From Escherichia phage vB_EcoM_ESCO25: a DNA stretch of 64,000 nucleotides. Positions 2,581-61,001 of this stretch are shown piece by piece. Location of the stretch: sequence record OM386656.1; one strand, written 5' to 3'. Numbering within the stretch: position 1 is the stretch's first letter; every line of letters begins with the position of its first letter. Below the pieces are notes generated by a model. That model made no database searches. It was not told the DNA's origin and saw only the letters and a program-made list of their open reading frames with translations. The position numbers and the translations under genes were made by a program.

Positions 2581-4644
2581 ATGAAACAAGCTATATTTAC
2601 TGTCACGCGAGACAAGAGAGTAAATGCGAGTTCATTTAACTACACGACTGTTGATGGAACAGCAGTCGCTGGTAGAGATTATATTGCAAAATCGGGAACA
2701 CTTGTGTTCCCTGATGATGCAGATTCTGCTACCATTGTGGTTGAAGTATTTGAACGACCAAAGAACTCAATAGATCTTAACTTCTCCCTCCAAGTTTCAG
2801 GGATTAGTCAAAATAATATGATGGTTGAAACAACTATCAATTGTATTATAACTACGATCCAAGAAAACACTACTCCAATAACTTGGGCCACAAAAGACGT
2901 TAAAATGTTCTCTCCTATGTATTGGACAATAGATTCTCAAGCAACGGAAAGTTGTTCTATTGTATCTCATGGAGACTCTTTTACTGCAAGATTTGTAAAC
3001 AGAACAGCAGCAGGTTTGGCAGGGGTTATCTGGAGCACAGTGGACAAATATGACCATAAAGGTGTTGGATATTTACCTCACACAGACTTAAGTTCAGAGA
3101 AACTTTGGTTTAAAATGGAAATTAGTCAAAATATGCCAGGTTTTAAAGAAGAACCTTTGGTGCCAACTTTGACTGTAACTCTCTTGGATAAAAGCGTCCA
3201 CTATGTTAGTTTAGGATTTTATGCTTCAGATATTTCAGAAGATGGTAAAACAGCCACAATCAAATTAGATTTTGGTAATATCTTTTCTGGTCCTAATAAC
3301 GATATTCCTTTGGACATGAGTGCTGTAGATAATATTTTCTTCTCTTTGATTACAGCAAGGTATGAAGAAATAGAAGAGATTGTGCCTATTGATAGTCAAG
3401 AGGCTTCGTTTACTTTCACTCTTCTTGAACCTACTTCTGGTTATAGCATGATGAAAGTCAGCAACCTTGTCCAGCCTGAACATGATATTCGTATGTGCAC
3501 ATCTTATGATGATATGTATAACCTGACTCCAGAAAGAGTTATTTATAATACATATGCGCTAGGTTATCGTGGGATGATTAACCATTATAACGGAATGTCC
3601 CATTATTATGAGTTCTCATGGAATGGAACATCTTGGGCTTTAAATAGATCTGTCTTCCTGAATCCTGCTACAGAAGCTTGGCTAAATAGTTTCCATTCTA
3701 TAGCAAACGAGAAGGGCTACACAATAATGAACTCTTTAAGTTTTGAATTGATGAGCACAGTTTGTCCTGTAGAATGGGTCCAGCATGATTGGAACGATGC
3801 TCTTGCAGCAACAGGGTATGAACCTCCTAGTTATGTGTTGTCTCCAACTATTGACGAAGGTATGGAATATTTGCAAAATGTTATTAATAAAATAGCATCT
3901 ATTTCGCAAGCTAATAATATTCCAGTTGTCATTCAAATTGGTGAGCCTTGGTGGTGGTATAATACAGCAAGTAAAATGCCTTGTATATATGATTACACTA
4001 CCAAACTGGCATTCAATACAGAAACAGGCTTATTTGCACAAGATGCAGGAACAATAGATAATTATAAAACAGGAACACCGTTTGACGAATACTATGCATT
4101 TTTGTCTCGTAAACTAGGATTAAGAGTTACAAAGTTTGCAACAGATACTAGAGCAACTTATCCAGGAGCTAAAGTAACATTACTTCCATTCTTACCATCA
4201 ATTATTGGCAACGGTTTGATGGAGAAAGTTAACTTTCCGTCTGATTACTACATTCCTGAAGCTTTTGATTTTTACTGTTCGGAGTGTTACGACTGGCTTC
4301 TGGAAGGTAAAATGATGAAAGCATTTGATGCAATTACCATACCACATGAAAAATTAGGTTTTGAATATTCTGATATTCACTATCTTTCAGGTTTTGTTCC
4401 AGATGCTACTCTTGCACCTTTGTATGGCTTCGATCCTGAATCAAACTACCGAACGTATCTTTGGAAAATGATTATAGGCAATATAGTATTGAACGCCAAC
4501 AAGTTTGACGGGCTTACACAATATATATGGGCCTATCCTCAAATAATGCACGATTCAATCACGGTAGTTAATTCTCAATCCCAAGTGTTCTATATGGGTA
4601 ACGTGCCTTTGAACGTTTATTTACAGGATACAGTATATGCCTAA
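2581..4644 (+). CDS. structural protein with N-terminal Calx-beta-like domain
   Basis: 687-aa ORF, SD GTAAGGAG before ATG; N-terminus YTTVDGTAVAGRDYIAKSGTLVFPDDADSATIVVEV resembles Calx-beta signature. Confidence 0.6.
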   Translation: MKQAIFTVTRDKRVNASSFNYTTVDGTAVAGRDYIAKSGTLVFPDDADSATIVVEVFERPKNSIDLNFSLQVSGISQNNMMVETTINCIITTIQENTTPITWATKDVKMFSPMYWTIDSQATESCSIVSHGDSFTARFVNRTAAGLAGVIWSTVDKYDHKGVGYLPHTDLSSEKLWFKMEISQNMPGFKEEPLVPTLTVTLLDKSVHYVSLGFYASDISEDGKTATIKLDFGNIFSGPNNDIPLDMSAVDNIFFSLITARYEEIEEIVPIDSQEASFTFTLLEPTSGYSMMKVSNLVQPEHDIRMCTSYDDMYNLTPERVIYNTYALGYRGMINHYNGMSHYYEFSWNGTSWALNRSVFLNPATEAWLNSFHSIANEKGYTIMNSLSFELMSTVCPVEWVQHDWNDALAATGYEPPSYVLSPTIDEGMEYLQNVINKIASISQANNIPVVIQIGEPWWWYNTASKMPCIYDYTTKLAFNTETGLFAQDAGTIDNYKTGTPFDEYYAFLSRKLGLRVTKFATDTRATYPGAKVTLLPFLPSIIGNGLMEKVNFPSDYYIPEAFDFYCSECYDWLLEGKMMKAFDAITIPHEKLGFEYSDIHYLSGFVPDATLAPLYGFDPESNYRTYLWKMIIGNIVLNANKFDGLTQYIWAYPQIMHDSITVVNSQSQVFYMGNVPLNVYLQDTVYA

Positions 4645-12099: not shown

Positions 12100-14124
12100 A
12101 TGAATTTAACAAGACCTAATAGTGCGATAGCCGATCTAGTAGAAGCTACTTATCGAAAACGTCGCAGTTTTGAGGCAGGTTTTACATTACGTAATTCCCG
12201 TGAAGTTTTGCTGTTAGCGGCAGAAGGGAATTATTACCAATGGAAAGGAACTTTTCCTAAAGTAGTTCCAGCAAACTCTACGCCAGCCACCACAGGTGGT
12301 ATTTCTTCCCTTGCATGGCAAAGTGTTGGGACCGCTGATGATATAGCAATTATCAATGCCAAGTTTACGGCAATGCAGCAACAGATTGATGATCTGTCGG
12401 AAACAATACCTGAAGCTGGTAAATCGGCTTATCAGATCGCACTTGATAATGGTTTTGTTGGAACAGAAGCACAATGGCTTGCTTCTTTGAAAGGGGATAC
12501 TGGTGCTCAACTTAATATTAAAGGGTCATTAGCAAGCACTAGTGAACTACCATCTACAGGTAACGTTGCAGGGGATGGTTATATCGTAGGTGATGTAATC
12601 TACGCTTGGGATGGTTCTGTTTGGAAACTTATTTCTTCTCTTGGGCCAGAAGGTAAATCAGCTTACGAGGTATGGTTGGCAGATGGTAATACAGGATCTG
12701 TTTATGATTTTCTTACCTCTATAAAAGGTGATAAAGGCGATGTTGGTCCTACAGGGCCACAGGGAGCACCTGGTGTTAACGCCAACGGTTTTGATTATCG
12801 TGGAGATTTGCCTTCTACAAGTAACTTACCACAACCTAACTCTGAAAACGTAAGCCAAGCTTATTCTATCAATGGTAATCTTTATGTCTCTAATGGGACA
12901 GCTTGGGTCAACATGGGTAATATTGTTGGTCCTCAAGGTCCACAAGGTGAGGCAGGTAAAGACGGTCTAGATGGAACAGATGGAGATGAAGGGAAATCTG
13001 CATATCAAAGTTGGCTGGATGCTGGTAATGAAGGGACAGAAGTAGATTTTATTGCCTCGCTTAAAGGTCCAAAAGGAGACAAGGGTGATCAAGGAGAGCA
13101 AGGTCCACAAGGTGAATTAGGTCCACAAGGACCAGTAGGTGCAACAGGATCAGGCTTAGAGATTATCGGGGTTCTGAACAGCGAAGCTGAACTTCCTCCG
13201 ACTGGAGAAGTAGGTGACGCATATAAAATTAATAATGATTTATATGTTTGGGTCCAAGATGCTACGGAATGGATGAATGTTGGCAGTCTTGGAGGAACAT
13301 CAATTACAGCTAAAGGTCATGTTCCGAACAGTGAAGCTCTCCCTGTTTACAATAACTATGGTGATGCTTACTTAACTGAAGACACTAGTAATCTTTACAT
13401 CTATACCTACGATCAAGGCACCAATTCCGCATCTTTTGTTGACATGGGAAGTATTAAAGGCGACAAAGGTGAAAAAGGGGATAAAGGAGATAAGGGTGAT
13501 CCTGGAACAAACGGAACCAACGGTACTGATGGGACCAACGGTAAGGACGGCGCACAGTGGTTTGTAGCAACAACTAATCCAGTCGCAGGAGACGGTGTTA
13601 TCAATGATTACGCCTTCAATACTACCACTGGAGCAGTGTTTAAGAAAACAGATTCTTCTACGTGGACGCTTATAGGAACTCTTCCTAGTATACCAGAAGC
13701 CCCTCAAGACGGCTTGACGTATGGTAGGTCTGATGGAAACTGGATCGAAATATCAGGATCAGATCCTACGGAAGCTATAATACCAACTAGAGTTACAGCA
13801 GGTTTCATGGAACTTGAAACAACTACTGCCAACTCTGGAGCATCTTGGACTCCTTCTGGAACTTCCAATATGTATGTTGTTACAGTAACTGACGCTCTGA
13901 CAGTTGGAGCATGGCCTGGTGTCACTGGCTCTACAAAACCTAAAGCGTTTTCAGCAATGATTTATTTGATTCAAGATACAACGGGACACACGGTTACACT
14001 AGATGCGTCTTATGGAGCACTAAATGATACAGAAATAGCAACTACTGCTAACGCAGTAACAATTTTGCAATTAACGTATCCTGGTGTGGGTGATATCGTG
14101 GACATGGTTGTTGTAACACGATAA
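12100..14124 (+). CDS. collagen-like tail fibre protein
   Basis: 674-aa ORF, SD TAGGAGAG; several Gly-X-Y tracts (GDKGDQGEQGPQGELGPQGPVGATG) separated by three copies of a GKSAY..WL..G..G...DF..S.KG repeat. Confidence 0.8.
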   Translation: MNLTRPNSAIADLVEATYRKRRSFEAGFTLRNSREVLLLAAEGNYYQWKGTFPKVVPANSTPATTGGISSLAWQSVGTADDIAIINAKFTAMQQQIDDLSETIPEAGKSAYQIALDNGFVGTEAQWLASLKGDTGAQLNIKGSLASTSELPSTGNVAGDGYIVGDVIYAWDGSVWKLISSLGPEGKSAYEVWLADGNTGSVYDFLTSIKGDKGDVGPTGPQGAPGVNANGFDYRGDLPSTSNLPQPNSENVSQAYSINGNLYVSNGTAWVNMGNIVGPQGPQGEAGKDGLDGTDGDEGKSAYQSWLDAGNEGTEVDFIASLKGPKGDKGDQGEQGPQGELGPQGPVGATGSGLEIIGVLNSEAELPPTGEVGDAYKINNDLYVWVQDATEWMNVGSLGGTSITAKGHVPNSEALPVYNNYGDAYLTEDTSNLYIYTYDQGTNSASFVDMGSIKGDKGEKGDKGDKGDPGTNGTNGTDGTNGKDGAQWFVATTNPVAGDGVINDYAFNTTTGAVFKKTDSSTWTLIGTLPSIPEAPQDGLTYGRSDGNWIEISGSDPTEAIIPTRVTAGFMELETTTANSGASWTPSGTSNMYVVTVTDALTVGAWPGVTGSTKPKAFSAMIYLIQDTTGHTVTLDASYGALNDTEIATTANAVTILQLTYPGVGDIVDMVVVTR

Positions 14125-55679: not shown

Positions 55680-57140
55680 GTGCCAAAAATAGTCACTTGG
55701 GAACAATATAAAACAGATATAAAACAAGCTTATCAAGGTAAGTCTTGGACTGTTGTAGATTATATTGAGCCGTGGAACGGCAATAAAACTAAACTTAGAT
55801 GCATCTGTGCTCTGCATGGAGAATGGAAAACAACAAGCATAAATACCGCTAAACTAGGGAGGGGTTGTCCAGAATGCGGTAGGGAGATTATAAGTAAAGC
55901 AGTATCTATAAACAAATCAAAAACCTGGGAGCAATATAAAGAAGAAGTGCAAACCACTTACAATCAGGCAGGTAAGTTTTGGACTGTTACAGGATGGCAC
56001 GGAGAATGGAAAGGATGGAATACTAAACTGGTTTGTTGTTGTGCTTTACATGGGGAGTGGAGGTCTACTTCTATATCTTCTGCGAAAAACGGGAGTGGAT
56101 GCAGGAAGTGTATGGGAGAAGCAAACAGAGAAAGAACATCGATTGCATGGGAGAAACATAAAGAAGAAGTAGAAGAAGCTTATAAAGAAAAACCCTGGAT
56201 TGTTAGAGGCTATGTGGAACCGTGGAACGGTTCCCGCACTAAGTTGATTTGTGAGTGTAAGGTTCATGGTCAATGGTGCACTACCACTGTAAACAGTGCT
56301 AAACAAGGGACTGGATGCTACAGTTGTCAAAGAGAAATGACGAAACAAAGGAATACAATGGAGGATAAACAACATGTTGAAGATTTTATAAAAGCTTGTC
56401 CTGATAATGTAGAGCGTAAATATTATCGTAGCGATAGAGTAGATAGATTAGGTCGTCAGGTTTACTGGATTGTAGAATGTCCTATATGTGCAGAGGATGA
56501 TTATTGTAAAGAAGGCTTATGCGATAATAAATTTGAGATGAAGATGAGTCATTTGAAAAGGGGTGGCCTTCCTTGCCGTTGTTCTAAATATTATCATTAC
56601 ACTCCTGAACAATGGGCCTACCGTATGACCAAAGCTTGCCAGGAACGAGGGGATCAATTTATAGGATTCATTGATAAGGTAAGCAATAACAGCAAGTTTA
56701 AATATCTATGTAGGGAGCATGGAGAGCAAACGATCACACCTACCGATTATCTCAATGGGAAAGGTTGTCCAGGCTGTAAGAACAGAAATATGCAAGAATT
56801 TTACATCAATATTATTCTTGATGAGTACGGAGAAGACACGGGAGCTTACAAGTTGGGGATTGCAAAGGACAGTGATATCAGGATCAAAGGGCAGAATGCA
56901 AACAACAATTACTCTATGCGCCGTATAGCATTGTTCGATCTGCCGTCCTACCAAGCTTGCAGGGCGTTAGAGAGTAAGCTAAAGTCTAAGACTGATCAGA
57001 TTCTACCGTCTATTGGCTGTGTAGAACGCTTGCACATGAAAGATGGTCATAGTGAAACCTTCCTGCGCGAGGATTTGGCTATCGTCTTAAGTGCTATCAA
57101 CCAAGCAGGTGGAATAATGAGAGAGGAGGAAACATGTTAG
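55680..57140 (+). CDS. protein with three tandem Cys-rich zinc-ribbon-like repeats and a C-terminal T5orf172 (GIY-YIG-like) domain; putative nuclease/DNA-binding
   Basis: 486-aa ORF with GTG start; three copies of W..Y...W.V..Y.EPWNG..TKL.C.C..HGEW..TS...AK.G.GC..C; C-terminal GAYKLGIAKDSDIR...GHSETF. Confidence 0.45.
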   Translation: MPKIVTWEQYKTDIKQAYQGKSWTVVDYIEPWNGNKTKLRCICALHGEWKTTSINTAKLGRGCPECGREIISKAVSINKSKTWEQYKEEVQTTYNQAGKFWTVTGWHGEWKGWNTKLVCCCALHGEWRSTSISSAKNGSGCRKCMGEANRERTSIAWEKHKEEVEEAYKEKPWIVRGYVEPWNGSRTKLICECKVHGQWCTTTVNSAKQGTGCYSCQREMTKQRNTMEDKQHVEDFIKACPDNVERKYYRSDRVDRLGRQVYWIVECPICAEDDYCKEGLCDNKFEMKMSHLKRGGLPCRCSKYYHYTPEQWAYRMTKACQERGDQFIGFIDKVSNNSKFKYLCREHGEQTITPTDYLNGKGCPGCKNRNMQEFYINIILDEYGEDTGAYKLGIAKDSDIRIKGQNANNNYSMRRIALFDLPSYQACRALESKLKSKTDQILPSIGCVERLHMKDGHSETFLREDLAIVLSAINQAGGIMREEETC

Positions 57141-57499
57141 TTGACGTTCAAATTATGCGCAACGAAAGAATGGACTTCTTTGAAGCAGTAGAGAAACATC
57201 TGATCAGATGGGACTATGAATTTGTTCCTGCTGGATGTGGACCAGTAGAGCATTTAGCGGAAGACGACGATGTATACATGATCATTCGTCAAGTGTACCA
57301 GACAGACCAGTGTGAAGAAACTCCCGAACTGATTTTGTTTGAGTGTAAAGATCTTGCAAAATATTTTGACTATGGCGGAAAAGAGGGTCATAATCTCTCC
57401 AGATACAATAAACGTCTACTTATCTTAGACTACATGCGGAACAACAAACACAAACTCATCGACGCAGACGCAGTTTATGGCTACTGGTGGATGGACTAA
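57134..57499 (+). CDS. hypothetical acidic protein
   Basis: 121-aa ORF, SD GAGGAGGA. Confidence 0.5.
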   Translation: MLVDVQIMRNERMDFFEAVEKHLIRWDYEFVPAGCGPVEHLAEDDDVYMIIRQVYQTDQCEETPELILFECKDLAKYFDYGGKEGHNLSRYNKRLLILDYMRNNKHKLIDADAVYGYWWMD

Positions 57500-57512
57500 C
57501 AAAGGAGAAACT

Positions 57513-57692
57513 ATGGCACGTTTAGCAGATCATGAAATCTTTAAACCTATTCTGAACCACTATGATGAACTTAAAGCAGTGTTGGATTGTTATAGAGAGG
57601 ATGAAGAACGTTTGGAAGTCAATCTTAAGATAGTTCTGATGAAAGCTTTTCAAGACGGGCAAGCTAAAGTTTTAGAAGGCATGAAAAAATGA
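57513..57692 (+). CDS. small hypothetical protein
   Basis: Start at ATG 57513 (SD AAGGAG); 59 aa. Confidence 0.45.
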   Translation: MARLADHEIFKPILNHYDELKAVLDCYREDEERLEVNLKIVLMKAFQDGQAKVLEGMKK

Positions 57693-58231
57693 GAATAACT
57701 GATGAATATGTATTCTTCTTTTCACATAAAGATGTGTTTAGTAATTGGTATATTGCACCCTTTACAGAAACTGAACCAGGTTACAATGAGACTTTCTGTT
57801 GTGTTGAGCAATATATGATGTGGCGTAAGGCTTTGCTGTTCAAGGATCATGCGATTGCAGCAGCTATCCTTGATCACTCAACTATACGTGACAACGAGAG
57901 GAAACAAGCATACTACAAACGTATGGGTCGAGCGGTATCTGGTTTTAATAATGATATGTGGGAAGAGAACCGTGAGCGTATTGTTATGCGAGGCTTATGC
58001 TTGAAATATGTACAGAATCCAGATTTGTATGCAGACTTACACCTTTACCAATACAAAACGTTTGTTGAAGCAAGTCCTTACGATAAGGTTTACGGTATTG
58101 GAATGGGAATGTATGAACCAGGGGTGCTAAACCCTGCTACCTGGAAAGGGCAGAATCTTTTAGGAAAATATCATAATAAACTGATCGAAATACTTTTCCC
58201 AGACAAAATACCGCAAAGACGATATTTGTGA
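57689..58231 (+). CDS. NADAR-domain (YbiA-like) protein
   Basis: 180-aa ORF; FFFSHKDVFSNWY, CVEQYMMWRKALLF and EASPYDKVYGIGMG match NADAR conserved blocks. Confidence 0.75.
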   Translation: MRITDEYVFFFSHKDVFSNWYIAPFTETEPGYNETFCCVEQYMMWRKALLFKDHAIAAAILDHSTIRDNERKQAYYKRMGRAVSGFNNDMWEENRERIVMRGLCLKYVQNPDLYADLHLYQYKTFVEASPYDKVYGIGMGMYEPGVLNPATWKGQNLLGKYHNKLIEILFPDKIPQRRYL

Positions 58232-58287
58232 TATTTTAACTTTTTTCATTTTTAGAACAAAGGTGTCACTTTGTAGCACAGAAATAA

Positions 58288-58322
58288 GGCTCCTACAGCA
58301 CCGTAGAGAGCCTGTTATTTTG
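58288..58322 (+). terminator. putative terminator after NADAR gene
   Basis: GGCTCCTAC-AGCACC-GTAGAGAGCC imperfect stem then TGTTATTTTG. Confidence 0.45.
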
Positions 58323-58456
58323 TCCTATACAAACCCTTGTCTTTTTCAGTTTGCATCACTAGGATTCGATCTGAGTGGGTTCCTGAAGGTTTACCAATAA
58401 GATTAAAGGTTATATCAAATTCCCACTATCTTTTATCTCAAAAATCCCTCAAATTA

Positions 58457-58521
58457 TTTAAACTTTTTAAGAATTTACAAAAGTGAAAGTTGAAAACCAA
58501 AATTTAAAGTTTAGGAAAATT
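58457..58521. repeat. AT-rich direct repeat, copy 1 (65 bp)
   Basis: About 85 percent identical by manual alignment to copy at 58595..58659; shared core TTTACAAAA.TGAAAGT..AAAA.CAAAATTTAAAGTTTA. Confidence 0.7.
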
Positions 58522-58594
58522 ATCTTAAAATATTAGATACAAAACAAAACTCAAAAGTCAAGGAAAATTTTAAAAATTTTGCGCGCCCACAGTA

Positions 58595-58659
58595 TTTAAA
58601 GTTTTTTTGCTTTTACAAAAATGAAAGTACAAAAGCAAAATTTAAAGTTTACAAAAATT
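58595..58659. repeat. AT-rich direct repeat, copy 2 (65 bp)
   Basis: Second copy; 10 mismatches in 65 positions versus copy 1. Confidence 0.7.
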
Positions 58660-58671
58660 TTTATGCAGGTG

Positions 58672-58790
58672 AAAATGAGAAGAGTTCTCATATGGAAATG
58701 CAAATGATAATGATTCGCATTTAAGTTTATAAATGAGATTGATTCTTATTTAATAAGGTAAATGACAATCATTCTCATTTAGAGAATGAC
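58672..58790. repeat. cluster of AAATGA / TCATTT dyad elements (iteron/operator-like)
   Basis: ATGAGAA-GAG-TTCTCAT perfect palindrome (58675-58691); AAATGC..GCATTT (58696-58722); AAATGAGA..TCTCATTT and TAAATGA..TCATTTA further right. Confidence 0.6.
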
Positions 58791-59009
58791 GCGCAGGGGC
58801 GGTGTTTGTCTCGCGCTCCCGTGTCCCCTCGCCATGTAATAAGAATAACAGATCCAGCCAGGAAAGCAAGCGATTATTTTATCTTTACATTTCTTTACAA
58901 ATATATAGCACCCAGCCTACCGGCGATCAACCTTCCAACCAGTGCCCCCTGGTATGTTAGCCCCGCCTTTACGCCGTGGGGTGGCGCTTCCTCTTCTGTA
59001 TGTAAAACA

Positions 59010-59036
59010 GTATAAGCCCGATCCCTGGGCTTGTCA
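59010..59036 (-). terminator. hairpin downstream of - strand gene 59040..59306
   Basis: AAGCCC-(7 nt)-GGGCTT inverted repeat; T-rich flank on both strands. Confidence 0.4.
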
Positions 59037-59039
59037 AGA

Positions 59040-59306
59040 TTATTTTTTGTTTTCTTGCCAGGATAGGACACCTAACCAAAAATACATATCGCCCCGCGCC
59101 CCTGGTGGTATCTTGCTTTCCCCGCCGCCACTGCAAGCCCATAGATAACCATTTGCGAACGTATCAAAATGATCTATCTCTTCCACCTTATGATCGCCCA
59201 GGTTGAGAACGGTTTCAACCTTTAAGCCCGTTGCGCTTGCTACCTGGTGCACCGTGCCGCCTTGCCAGCCCAATGAGTGCATAAGGTGTAATGTAGTATT
59301 TGTCAT
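59040..59306 (-). CDS. hypothetical protein in GC-richer right segment
   Basis: 88-aa ORF with GC-rich codon choice; own promoter plus 5' hairpin; SD AAGGG. Confidence 0.5.
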   Translation of the reverse strand: MTNTTLHLMHSLGWQGGTVHQVASATGLKVETVLNLGDHKVEEIDHFDTFANGYLWACSGGGESKIPPGARGDMYFWLGVLSWQENKK

Positions 59307-59328
59307 GATATCGCCCTTTCTTTGTTGT

Positions 59329-59382
59329 GCGCCCTGGTTGGCGCGGTAGAAAGATAATAGCCCTTTTCTTTATATATAGCAA
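59329..59382 (-). promoter_or_regulatory. promoter plus 5' stem-loop for - strand gene 59040..59306
   Basis: On - strand TTGCTA, 17-nt spacer, TATTAT, about 9 nt, then GCGCC-AACCAG-GGCGC hairpin, then SD. Confidence 0.5.
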
Positions 59383-59414
59383 GCAAAAAGAAAATAAAAA
59401 AGATTGAAAAATGG

Positions 59415-59473
59415 TTGACGTTAACCAGGCGGCGGCGTAGTATTCATCTTGTAGGGCGGCAATGGTGCCGCTC
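59415..59473 (+). promoter_or_regulatory. promoter-hairpin unit 1 (hairpin type A)
   Basis: TTGACG 59415-59420, 17-nt spacer, TAGTAT 59438-59443, 10 nt, GGGCGGC-AATGGT-GCCGCTC 59454-59473. Confidence 0.6.
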
Positions 59474-59492
59474 ACTATTTGGAGTTAAGATC

Positions 59493-59690
59493 ATGGCAAC
59501 ATTGCACATTGTGGCGAAAGCTGGACAAATCAACGTAGTGGTAAACGGTTTTACTGAGTTCAGTCACCCCCAGGATGATCATGAAACGGTTTTATCTTTC
59601 ATTGATTCCCTGTTAGAAATGGGAGTCATTACAGAAGACCAGCACGCTACAAAATGCAAGCGCGTTAATCAAATCGCAGGAATAGAATAA
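59493..59690 (+). CDS. small early-region protein
   Basis: ATG 59493 after promoter-hairpin unit and SD GGAG; upstream extension of track ORF lacks SD. Confidence 0.5.
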   Translation: MATLHIVAKAGQINVVVNGFTEFSHPQDDHETVLSFIDSLLEMGVITEDQHATKCKRVNQIAGIE

Positions 59691-59697
59691 AAACTAT

Positions 59698-59756
59698 TGA
59701 CAACAAACAACAACCTGATAAGATGTATCACATAGGGCGGGAAGTGGTTTCCCGCT
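59698..59756 (+). promoter_or_regulatory. promoter-hairpin unit 2 (hairpin type B)
   Basis: TTGACA 59698-59703, 16-nt spacer, TAAGAT 59720-59725, linker GTATCACATAGG, GCGGGAA-GTGGT-TTCCCGC 59738-59756. Confidence 0.6.
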
Positions 59757-59780
59757 CGTAACAGAAGAGAGATTATCATC

Positions 59781-60053
59781 ATGGCATCATATAGCGCAAC
59801 AATGATCGTAGCTGGCACAACTGGTAAACCTATGAGCGGTGGCGGATCTTTCGCTAATATCAATATTGACGGGCGTTTATCCCTGGACGCAGCGATCGCT
59901 ATTGCACGGGAAACATTTAAGAAAGAATGTAATTTCAACAAGCAAGATTATCTCGGTTTCGCTATTGAAAAAACCGCGCGCTTTGTTGATTATAAAAGCC
60001 CGAAAATGGTTGATACTACACTAAAAGCGCAAGATGTAGCGTTTTTGCTTTAA
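59781..60053 (+). CDS. small early-region protein
   Basis: 90-aa ORF after promoter-hairpin unit, SD AGAAGAGAG. Confidence 0.5.
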   Translation: MASYSATMIVAGTTGKPMSGGGSFANINIDGRLSLDAAIAIARETFKKECNFNKQDYLGFAIEKTARFVDYKSPKMVDTTLKAQDVAFLL

Positions 60054-60056
60054 GGC

Positions 60057-60111
60057 TTGACATTAACGAATAATTTGTTAATATGTTACATAAAGCGGGA
60101 ATAGTTCCCGC
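60057..60111 (+). promoter_or_regulatory. promoter-hairpin unit 3 (hairpin type B)
   Basis: TTGACA 60057-60062, 16-nt spacer, TAATAT 60079-60084, then GCGGGAA-TAG-TTCCCGC 60095-60111. Confidence 0.6.
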
Positions 60112-60129
60112 TATTTGTAAGGTGGTAGA

Positions 60130-60387
60130 ATGTTTTACATCAAATTAAAAGGTCACGTGATCGCGTTCAAAGATAACGCTTTTTACAGATTAGCAAAATA
60201 TGCGTTAATACATCCCCACTATGTTTATATAAGGAGGCGTGATGAAATAAATATCTTTGATCAAACAACATGCGAGAACATCGAGATCCGCAAGGTTGGC
60301 GTACGTGATTATCGTACATCTTTCTACCCTTGCAAGGATTCAGCAAGTCTTTTTAAAGTATGCCAATTGTTGAAAAAAGGTGGTTAA
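60130..60387 (+). CDS. small early-region protein
   Basis: 85-aa ORF after promoter-hairpin unit, SD AAGGTGG. Confidence 0.5.
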   Translation: MFYIKLKGHVIAFKDNAFYRLAKYALIHPHYVYIRRRDEINIFDQTTCENIEIRKVGVRDYRTSFYPCKDSASLFKVCQLLKKGG

Positions 60388-60388
60388 T

Positions 60389-60946
60389 ATGGGCCGCGAA
60401 TATGTGATCCAGTCTTGGGTAAAACATGAAGCAGATGATCCGCGCATCATTCCCGATCATCTTATCGATGAATCCACGGGATATAGCGGTGAGCAAATAG
60501 GTAACAGATTAGCACGTAGTAACGGCAACGTAAAAGCGCGTTATGTGCGCCCTGGTTGGCTGGCAAATGGTAACGCTGATTTATCCAGTGCGGAAGATGC
60601 GAGCGACGGCGCGAAAGATAATCCTTTGTACAAAGTTGATCCGGCTTTTCGTGTCCTGGATGAATACCCCAGCAAGATAGCGGCGCTCGATCAGGCCCTG
60701 GAAAGTAAGCGCATCACCTGGACCGCTTACAACATGGCAAAAAACGTACTTGATGGTAAATTGATTCAAGCTGAAAGAAAATTAGCCAAAATTGCAGCCA
60801 TAGCCCAGGAGGAAGACGAGGAGACAACGGAAGAGGAAGAGTACGAAGAGATCCCGCCGTTGTTGTGTGTTGATGCTTTTCCTGATTATCAGCCGACAGA
60901 GGAAGAAAAAAGGATCGCACTAGAAAACTTTGAAAATAGTCTTTGA
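60389..60946 (+). CDS. hypothetical protein with highly acidic C-terminal region
   Basis: ATG 60389; C-terminal EEDEETTEEEEYEEIPP tract. Confidence 0.5.
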   Translation: MGREYVIQSWVKHEADDPRIIPDHLIDESTGYSGEQIGNRLARSNGNVKARYVRPGWLANGNADLSSAEDASDGAKDNPLYKVDPAFRVLDEYPSKIAALDQALESKRITWTAYNMAKNVLDGKLIQAERKLAKIAAIAQEEDEETTEEEEYEEIPPLLCVDAFPDYQPTEEEKRIALENFENSL

Positions 60947-61001
60947 CATATCGCCGCCACTGGCATAATATTTACCACGTAGGGCGGCAATGGTGCCGCT
61001 C
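60943..61001 (+). promoter_or_regulatory. promoter-hairpin unit 4 (hairpin type A)
   Basis: TTGACA 60943-60948, 17-nt spacer, TAATAT 60966-60971, 10 nt, GGGCGGC-AATGGT-GCCGCTC 60982-61001. Confidence 0.6.

Follow-up and report, generated by a model that had tools for sequence, protein, structure and literature searches.

The stretch of 64,000 nt from the genome of Escherichia phage vB_EcoM_ESCO25 studied here (sequence record OM386656.1, one strand; the whole stretch is referred to as the window) contains a gap between its plus-strand genes that holds four dyad elements with the characteristics of operators for the host ferric uptake regulator Fur (Fur boxes). From 57600 to 59600, the identity is 99.9% with Escherichia phage vB_EcoM-Ro121lw and 98-99.8% with other Phapecoctavirus records, and the phage belongs to this genus (Stephanstirmvirinae, phAPEC8-like phages of ~150 kb). 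An earlier note on this DNA, made from the letters alone, had described some 570 bp free of open reading frames (ORFs); the DNA is indeed non-coding, but the gap is larger, extending over 1262 bp from the stop codon of a NADAR-domain gene (58231) to the next plus-strand ATG (59493), and contains one ORF of 88 amino acids on the minus strand (59306..59040), which is annotated in some records (ESCO13) and not in most. The AT-richness reported in the same note holds: the GC content is 29.2% at 58232-58800 and 23.9% at 58400-58700, compared with 39.3% for the whole window. The features at the core of this work are the following (bits refer to a matrix trained on other phages, ranks to a matrix built from host sites, both described below):

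57689..58231, plus strand: NADAR-domain gene, the last gene of the upstream plus-strand block (Pfam NADAR, E=3.4e-35)
58673..58693: Fur box 1, AAATGAGAAGAGTTCTCATAT, containing a 7-3-7 palindrome; 21.1 bits, rank 4 of 63,980
58702..58722: Fur box 2, AAATGATAATGATTCGCATTT; 31.8 bits, rank 1
58731..58751: Fur box 3, AAATGAGATTGATTCTTATTT; 27.7 bits, rank 3
58760..58780: Fur box 4 (proximal), AAATGACAATCATTCTCATTT; 29.2 bits, rank 2
58784..58789: GAGAAT with an invariant GAAT, ambiguous between an extra Fur hexamer, a -10-like element (of a plus-strand promoter occluded by Fur) and part of a hairpin

The four dyads start at 58673, 58702, 58731 and 58760, which corresponds to a spacing of exactly 29 bp; the earlier note had counted at least four. 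The perfect 7-3-7 palindrome that it had listed, ATGAGAAGAGTTCTCAT, lies at 58675-58691, and its GC island at 58581-58590 is also present. A weak terminator-like hairpin on the minus strand (58768-58790) overlaps the GAGAAT element.

A search with the 19-mer Fur consensus found nothing when up to three mismatches were allowed and became unspecific with five. Because a plain consensus search does not discriminate, matrix tests against real host operators were used. A matrix was trained on 34 distinct dyads of other phages, from which the window and its close relatives were left out, and was scanned on two 50-kb pieces of the Escherichia coli K-12 chromosome (595-645 kb and 4.49-4.54 Mb). The six best positions of the first piece all fall in the fepA-fes, fepD-entS and fepB-entC intergenic regions, which make up 1.5% of that DNA, and the two best of the second piece are located at the fecI and fecA promoters. 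These are the classical Fur-repressed promoters of the scanned regions; in 100 kb of host DNA, all eight top matches of a matrix derived from phage sequences lie in known Fur-regulated promoters. In the window itself, the same matrix gives the four dyads 21-32 bits, compared with 11.8 bits for the next best position, so that no position of the 64 kb other than the dyads exceeds 12 bits; in composition-matched simulations, the maximum reaches 13.6 bits at its 99th percentile. In the reverse direction, a matrix built from six of the host sites ranks the four dyads 1-4 among 63,980 window positions, a test that is partly circular because these host sites had been chosen as the best matches of the phage matrix. 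The host-site matrix also picks the dyads of a T5-like phage and those of the terminal repeat described below.

Direct comparison with the consensus gives a similar picture. Aligned by hand to the 19-bp consensus GATAATGATAATCATTATC, the four dyads agree at 11-15 of the 19 positions; the consensus scan gives 14/19 for box 2 and 15/19 for box 4, and GTAAATGACAATCATTCTC matches GATAATGATAATCATTATC at 15/19. The 7-1-7 core of box 4, TGACAATCATTCTCA, agrees with TGATAATNATTATCA at 12 of 14 positions, and relatives carry AATGATAATCATTATC exactly. Some relatives have near-perfect consensus boxes, such as GAATGATAATCATTATCATTT in phage 4MG. We conclude with high confidence that the dyads are predicted sites of the Fur-box type, and it is very likely that they bind Fe2+-Fur of the host. 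The earlier note had spoken of iteron-like repeats, typical of replication origins, packaging sites or genome ends; by the matrix tests the dyads are Fur-box-type sites and not phage iterons or a pac signal.

The boxes are widespread at this position. The segment from ~58700 to 59006 is conserved at 70-75% in Vequintavirinae (phiTE, CR3, SSE121, 4MG and pEp_SNUABM_01; sensitive blastn), where it is mostly unannotated, and every relative examined has one to five matches to the dyad palindrome in the syntenic gap. The genera with boxes at the same position are Phapecoctavirus, Justusliebigvirus, Certrevirus, Seunavirus, Henunavirus and Avunavirus. The 29-bp spacing is also found in CR3, phiTE and 4MG, and of the 18 distinct homologous blocks that were aligned, 15 have proximal box 4 in the same place; by eye, ECO340P2 has additional copies. 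A pattern scan of IMG/VR was too loose by itself, and its output was filtered by blastn and nhmmer. Beyond these subfamilies, boxes 2-3 are 83-87% identical over 55 nt to sequences of T5-like phages (Tequintavirus and Epseptimavirus records). The pseudo-ToxI of phiTE was dropped as a lead: the ToxI repeat, presumably of 36 nt, is unlike the 29-nt dyad units, and no search aimed at it was made. Record MG065645.1, named 'Campylobacter phage A145' (146 kb), matches the region at 85%, as Justusliebigvirus does; the label may be wrong or the sample contaminated.

To the left of the boxes lie the terminator of the NADAR unit and an array of AT-rich repeats:

58287..58321, plus strand: intrinsic terminator of the NADAR unit, with the stem AGGCTCCTAC / GTAGAGAGCCT containing one bulge, followed by GTTATTTTGT
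58450..58521: AT-rich direct repeat, copy 1, with the core TATTTAAACTTTTT at 58455-58468
58538..58571: partial third copy, corresponding to the 3' part of the unit, 74% identical to the two full copies
58581..58590: GC island GCGCGCCCAC between the repeat copies, conserved within Phapecoctavirus
58588..58659: AT-rich direct repeat, copy 2, with the core TATTTAAAGTTTTT at 58593-58606, and with AAAAATTTTT at 58653-58662

The terminator, which is kept in Phapecoctavirus, was read directly from the sequence, as its bulge hid it from a simple terminator scan. The two direct repeats reported in the earlier note exist, with other dimensions than the 65 bp and about 85% identity given there: the unit is 72 nt long (58450-58521 and 58588-58659) and 59 of its 72 positions are identical (82%), compared with a best 72-nt self-match of 38.2 +/- 2.1 (maximum 45) in Markov-1 shuffles of the same 300 nt. 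Copy 2 is the one common with Justusliebigvirus, whose blastn matches begin at ~58568. The core TATTT(A/T)AA(C/G)TTTTT occurs three times in the gap (58232, 58455 and 58593), has no copy with fewer than two mismatches elsewhere in the 64-kb window, and is invariant across Phapecoctavirus and Justusliebigvirus. Within the window, TTTGTAAAG and AAAAATTTTT are not enriched, and a seed-complement search with GAGACAAACACC gave no second site.

The comparison with related genomes proposed in the earlier note supports a conserved cis-acting non-coding element, made up of predicted protein-binding dyads adjoining an AT-rich repeat array: an array of repeats is present at the syntenic position in every relative examined, with sequences that are lineage-specific and, across subfamilies, unrelated. 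PHB05 has three units of ~62 nt, SSE121 three of ~63 nt, and phiTE about seven copies of GGGTCTCGATC. These phiTE copies lie left of its Fur boxes (segment L003, 1150-1410), and each of the SSE121 units (segment L008, 1240-1450) contains CTCGATC and GAAAAAATTTTT. At the corresponding position T5 has nine DRD units (Davison, bioRxiv 10.1101/866236). Lineage-specific array sequences would be expected if the sites belong to a phage protein that evolves together with them, which leaves room for an origin-like or partition-like role of the AT-rich repeats. We consider it probable that these repeats form an array separate from the Fur boxes.

The part of the gap to the right of the boxes is richer in GC, and the earlier note had described it as a promoter array. 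Promoters are present there, but it is not simply a promoter array, as two further conserved blocks, named module A and RNA-B, are also found in it:

58790..58840, minus strand: module A, ACAUGGCG...GAGACAAACACCG...CGUCAU, a conserved block whose 5' and 3' ends pair
58873..58900, minus strand: candidate promoter P2, TTGTAA-16-AATAAT, for module A
58880..59002, minus strand: RNA-B, a candidate structured small RNA of ~100 nt with four helices, found by covariance-model matches
59009..59037, minus strand: promoter P1, TTGACA-17-TATACT (11/12), predicted to drive RNA-B
59040..59306, minus strand: ORF of 88 amino acids (PHROG 19316), with an N-terminal LGWQGGTVHQVA..TGL motif common with phiTE gp079 (PHROG 33408)
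59354..59443: divergent promoters, TTGCTA-17-TATTAT on the minus strand (88-amino acid ORF) and TTGACG-17-TAGTAT on the plus strand (first early gene, ATG at 59493)

Read along the minus strand, the order is P1, RNA-B, P2, module A, Fur array, AT-rich repeats and NADAR terminator. A promoter matching at least 9 of 12 positions is found at the place of P1 in all 21 loci, with variable hexamers, and at the place of P2 in 18 of the 21, where relatives have TTGATC-16-TATTAT or TTGCAA-17-TATATT; in SSE121 a third promoter, also leftward, comes directly after the box. The covariance model finds RNA-B in 23 loci of Stephanstirmvirinae, Vequintavirinae and more distant phages of IMG/VR. In an alignment of 17 sequences, 94.5% of the cells are paired, compared with at most 57% when the partners are slid; with all 23 sequences the values are 92.3% and at most 52%, with compensatory changes in four pairs (15 cells), and it should be noted that the latter alignment was fitted to the covariance model, which favours structure. 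G.U pairs are abundant and fit the minus strand only, and reading of the sequences indicates that one hairpin is wholly replaced in distant homologues. On the 3' side, the closing helix is followed by a stretch rich in U and not by a canonical terminator. A known RNA family or a tRNA was ruled out for RNA-B, as there is no match in Rfam 15 at E<=1 (56000-61000) and ARAGORN finds no tRNA or tmRNA. RNA-B is a candidate for a widely conserved phage small RNA that has no Rfam family.

For module A, covariation is limited to the closing stem of 6 bp, which on the minus strand has G.U pairs and GC<->AU compensation; of seven sequences folded singly, six do not fold better than shuffled sequences. 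Its folds not being significant, module A was rejected as a stable structured RNA and retained as a conserved block, possibly a short RNA with pairing ends. No function could be assigned to the 88-amino acid ORF from Pfam or PHROGs; its product may be a small DNA-binding protein encoded beside the repeats. A host origin of the GC-richer part was rejected, as sensitive blastn gave no match in 5,426 E. coli genomes.

The location of the gap relative to the genome ends could be derived from related records. Korf et al. (PMC6563267) reported a terminal repeat of 328 bp for the Phapecoctavirus Schickermooser, a phage 98.8% identical, and in its record (NC_048196.1) the first 329 nt are identical to the last 329 nt (1-329 and 150866-151194). 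The Ro121lw record opens at position 1 with the same repeat sequence, apart from a few substitutions. Since this record starts with the terminal repeat, and 58232-58800 maps to its positions 136.7-137.3 kb, the locus lies ~12.5 kb inside the right end, with 34 small plus-strand genes in between. For the Justusliebigvirus BME3, a repeat of 342 bp was determined with PhageTerm (PMC12210895), and this repeat is likewise ~12 kb from the homologous gap. By this mapping, the locus is not a physical genome end. The ends of the BME3 assembly (PP239276.1) look unresolved: ~0.8 kb is repeated near the end of the record (146,170-147,371), N bases are present, and 'DTR-L' is annotated 73 bp from the end.

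The right-terminal non-coding region has three more strong Fur boxes. Two of them, with 25.5 and 30.1 bits, are part of the 329-bp terminal repeat, and the other is located a short way inside the right end; in MH160766.1 the boxes are at positions 74, 253 and 149124. The BME3 repeat region has the same pattern of boxes. With boxes both at the gap and at the terminal repeat and right end, clusters of Fur boxes bracket the terminal early-gene module of ~11 kb. The 34 small genes, from 59493 of the window to position 148,876 of Ro121lw, look like an early-gene array running toward the genome end. They are separated by spacers of ~80-90 bp, and each of the spacers scanned has its own sigma-70 promoter, such as TTGACA-16-TAAGAT at 59697 and TTGACA-16-TAATAT at 60057.

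Taken together, the gap appears to be a conserved non-coding control region of 1.26 kb, of which 58232-58800 makes up the left half. This region would probably mark the inner edge of the right-terminal module, which consists of ~11 kb of small early genes. The explanation that we favour, and consider reasonably probable, is that this region contains an array of operators for host Fur that acts on transcription. The four dyads would then constitute a tandem operator array phased at 29 bp. In iron-replete cells, dimers of Fe2+-Fur would occupy the array and probably spread along it, and the bound protein would occlude or block transcription across it, a cis-regulatory effect being the most likely one. 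Two routes can be envisaged: Fur could block leftward read-through from the tandem minus-strand sigma-70 promoters P1 and P2 into the AT-rich repeats, or it could control a weak rightward promoter that has the proximal box as its spacer. By either route, expression of the control region would be tied to the iron status of the host. We infer both the binding of Fur and the identity of the controlled transcript from sequence features, and the chance that the array acts in cis on transcription through the region may be put at about even or somewhat below.

Several observations, in addition to the partial circularity of the reverse matrix test, weigh against this explanation. Among the promoters that a box overlaps, none is conserved convincingly: on the plus strand, TTTACA-17-GAAAAT over box 1 has lost its spacing in nepoznato and differs in phiWec181, and TTGAAT-18-CAGAAT around the proximal box lacks the key A of the -10 hexamer in several relatives. 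Overlaps found by promoter scans mean little in any case, because Fur boxes themselves resemble -10 hexamers. A Fur roadblock far downstream of a promoter is not the classical mode of action of Fur. Finally, RNA-B and P2 are present in the more distant phages L109, L082, L047 and L088, which have no Fur box, and boxes are found in T5-like phages, which have no RNA-B; coupling of the boxes to these RNAs is therefore not obligatory. Other repeats replace the Fur boxes in L109, L082 and L047; in L109 (~13020-13130) and L082 (~2980-3090) the position is taken by a different repeat, AAACTATCACNCCCGAAAC, which suggests a swap of the DNA-binding partner.

As an operator array for Fur, the element is of a familiar type. 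It has the palindromic motif of the E. coli Fur operators at fepA-fes, fepB-entC, fecI and fecA, recognition by the matrices is mutual, and multiple adjacent or overlapping copies are also found at fepB-entC. Unlike these operators, however, the array is carried by a strictly virulent phage, there is no iron-related gene downstream, four to six copies stand in tandem at 29-bp spacing, and no clearly overlapped promoter was identified. To our knowledge, Fur boxes on phages are known only as switches of prophage cargo genes; stx1 is a Fur-regulated gene on a temperate phage. The sitABCD genes on lambdoid prophages are Fur-regulated genes borne by phages as well (PMC6969025). Our array has in common with these that boxes for host Fur are carried on phage DNA, but there a single box controls a cargo gene from the prophage, whereas here arrays are found in non-coding regions of lytic phages without any cargo gene. 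It is the context, the arrangement as an array and the link to the injection-stop region of T5 that are unusual.

This link concerns 'Repeat Region 3' of T5, a candidate for the injection-stop signal (iss), whose palindromes and DRC repeats were described as being of unknown function, with no mention of Fur (Davison, bioRxiv 10.1101/866236). In the T5-like phage chee24, the sequence matching boxes 2-3 lies at ~9.6 kb in the left terminal repeat, in non-coding DNA with DnaA boxes and many palindromes. By the host-site matrix, palindromes of chee24 (segment L004, 1040-1560) and phiR2-01 (L005) score as strong Fur boxes (up to 25.6 bits); after them comes an intrinsic terminator on the plus strand (1575-1592). 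In both systems, tandem Fur-type palindromes flanked by other repeat arrays are located ~10-12 kb from a genome end and border the earliest genes. The array of T5, in contrast, lies inside a terminal repeat of 10 kb together with paired DnaA boxes and nine DRD repeats, whereas the terminal repeat of the phage studied here is 329 bp long and lies elsewhere, and its gap has no DnaA boxes, including none of the paired ones of T5 IRD'/IRC'.

Other explanations for the locus have to be weighed. It could be a transcription-activated replication origin, at which P1 and P2 fire into the 24%-GC repeats, these serving as unwinding element and as iterons for a phage initiator, with Fur in an accessory or regulatory role. 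The primary origin of T7 consists of two promoters followed by an AT-rich stretch, and T4 oriF and oriG of a promoter followed by an unwinding element. The locus resembles these in that two or three promoters point into an AT-rich array, which here has a 72-nt repeat and a motif in three copies; arrays of differing sequence occur at the same place in all lineages, as would be expected for co-evolving phage proteins, and the T5-like counterpart has DnaA boxes. In T7 and T4, however, the transcripts are mere primers and Fur boxes are absent, whereas the transcripts here are predicted to be conserved structured RNAs. Moreover, there is no DnaA or IHF consensus (TTWTNCACA, TTATNCANA, WATCAANNNNTTR) in 58232-59493, no gene for an initiator, helicase loader or primase adjoins the gap (the neighbours are the NADAR gene, the 88-amino acid ORF and small early genes), and the GC skew has a small local dip only, which follows gene orientation. 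No replication mapping of rV5-like or phAPEC8-like phages was found in the searchable literature. We regard an origin as unlikely.

A second possibility is that the boxes are a decoy: about nine strong boxes per virion genome would titrate Fur as the phage DNA multiplies and de-repress iron uptake and RyhB, which would provide phage enzymes with iron, the location of the boxes in non-coding DNA being incidental. The Fur titration assay makes use of the established fact that one Fur box on a multicopy plasmid is enough to de-repress the Fur regulon. Copy number and scores are high, with four boxes in the gap, three at the right end and two duplicated at the left end, and the number varies by gain and loss of units (one to five per relative, with extra ones in ECO340P2), as if dosage mattered. 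We regard a decoy as decidedly unlikely. The boxes are not scattered; they are confined to two non-coding regions, at fixed positions and with a fixed 29-bp phasing across subfamilies. In addition, T5 is reported to degrade the host DNA early (10.64898/2026.04.02.716235), which would make de-repression of host genes pointless for T5-like phages, and yet these keep the array.

The likeness to T5 raises the possibility of an architectural or DNA-entry element similar to iss, in which the Fur arrays at both borders of the module would pause entry, anchor the DNA or insulate the ~12 kb that enter first. The T5-like sequences that boxes 2-3 match at 83-87% are the palindromes of Repeat Region 3 (palE-palJ and the DRC series in the nomenclature of Davison), and the layout is similar, with ~11 kb of small early genes at the genome end bracketed by repeat-rich non-coding DNA. 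Two-step injection has, however, never been reported for rV5-like or phAPEC8-like phages, the terminal repeat is 329 bp instead of 10 kb, and the paired DnaA boxes, which are central in T5 for Davison, are absent from the gap. In the literature covered, which did not extend to subscription journals, no paper was found that implicates Fur in T5 injection or links it to T5, rV5-like or phAPEC8-like phages. Such a role is very unlikely.

It is highly improbable that the dyads are operators of a phage-encoded repressor or of another member of the Fur family (Zur, Mur) and merely resemble Fur boxes. The phage consensus AAATGAGAATCATTCTCATTT does depart from GATAATGATAATCATTATC in a symmetrical way (G in place of T, C in place of A), the phage sites are more perfectly palindromic than host sites, and the conserved 88-amino acid protein is encoded nearby. 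However, the motif is common to three otherwise unrelated groups of phages (Stephanstirmvirinae, Vequintavirinae and Demerecviridae), which favours a host protein; the G/C variant positions vary in host operators as well, such as ATATGAGAATGGTTATCATTA at fecI; in 100 kb of host DNA the motif finds Fur operators only; and the dyads do not agree with GAAATGTTATAATATAACATTTC, the consensus of the E. coli Zur box. Finally, despite its AT-richness, its repeats and the occurrence of similar dyads in the true terminal repeat, the region is almost certainly not a physical terminus or a packaging (pac/cos) site, nor the junction at genome ends suggested in the earlier note, as the 329-nt repeat at the ends of the Schickermooser record lies ~12.5 kb to the right and that of BME3 is at a similar distance.

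Returning to the operator array for Fur, a broader view may be proposed from these sequence comparisons, although we consider it rather unlikely. Three groups of virulent enterobacterial phages (phAPEC8-like, rV5-like and T5-like) might have recruited arrays of host Fur operators into the non-coding DNA beside their first-expressed genes and their terminal repeats, with Fur as a structural or regulatory co-factor of the earliest steps of infection. As part of the same joint proposal, Fur would participate in DNA entry or pausing, in protection of the ends or in an early transcription switch, the iss palindromes of T5 would be Fur sites, and the iron status of the cell would gate infection.

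If Fur does bind these arrays, strictly lytic coliphages would read or exploit the iron sensor of their host, which would be relevant to phage therapy, given that iron is in short supply in the gut and the blood. Fur would also be a candidate for the protein that acts at the palindromes of the injection-stop region of T5, whose mechanism has been a question since the 1960s. RNA-B provides a second lead beside the Fur array.

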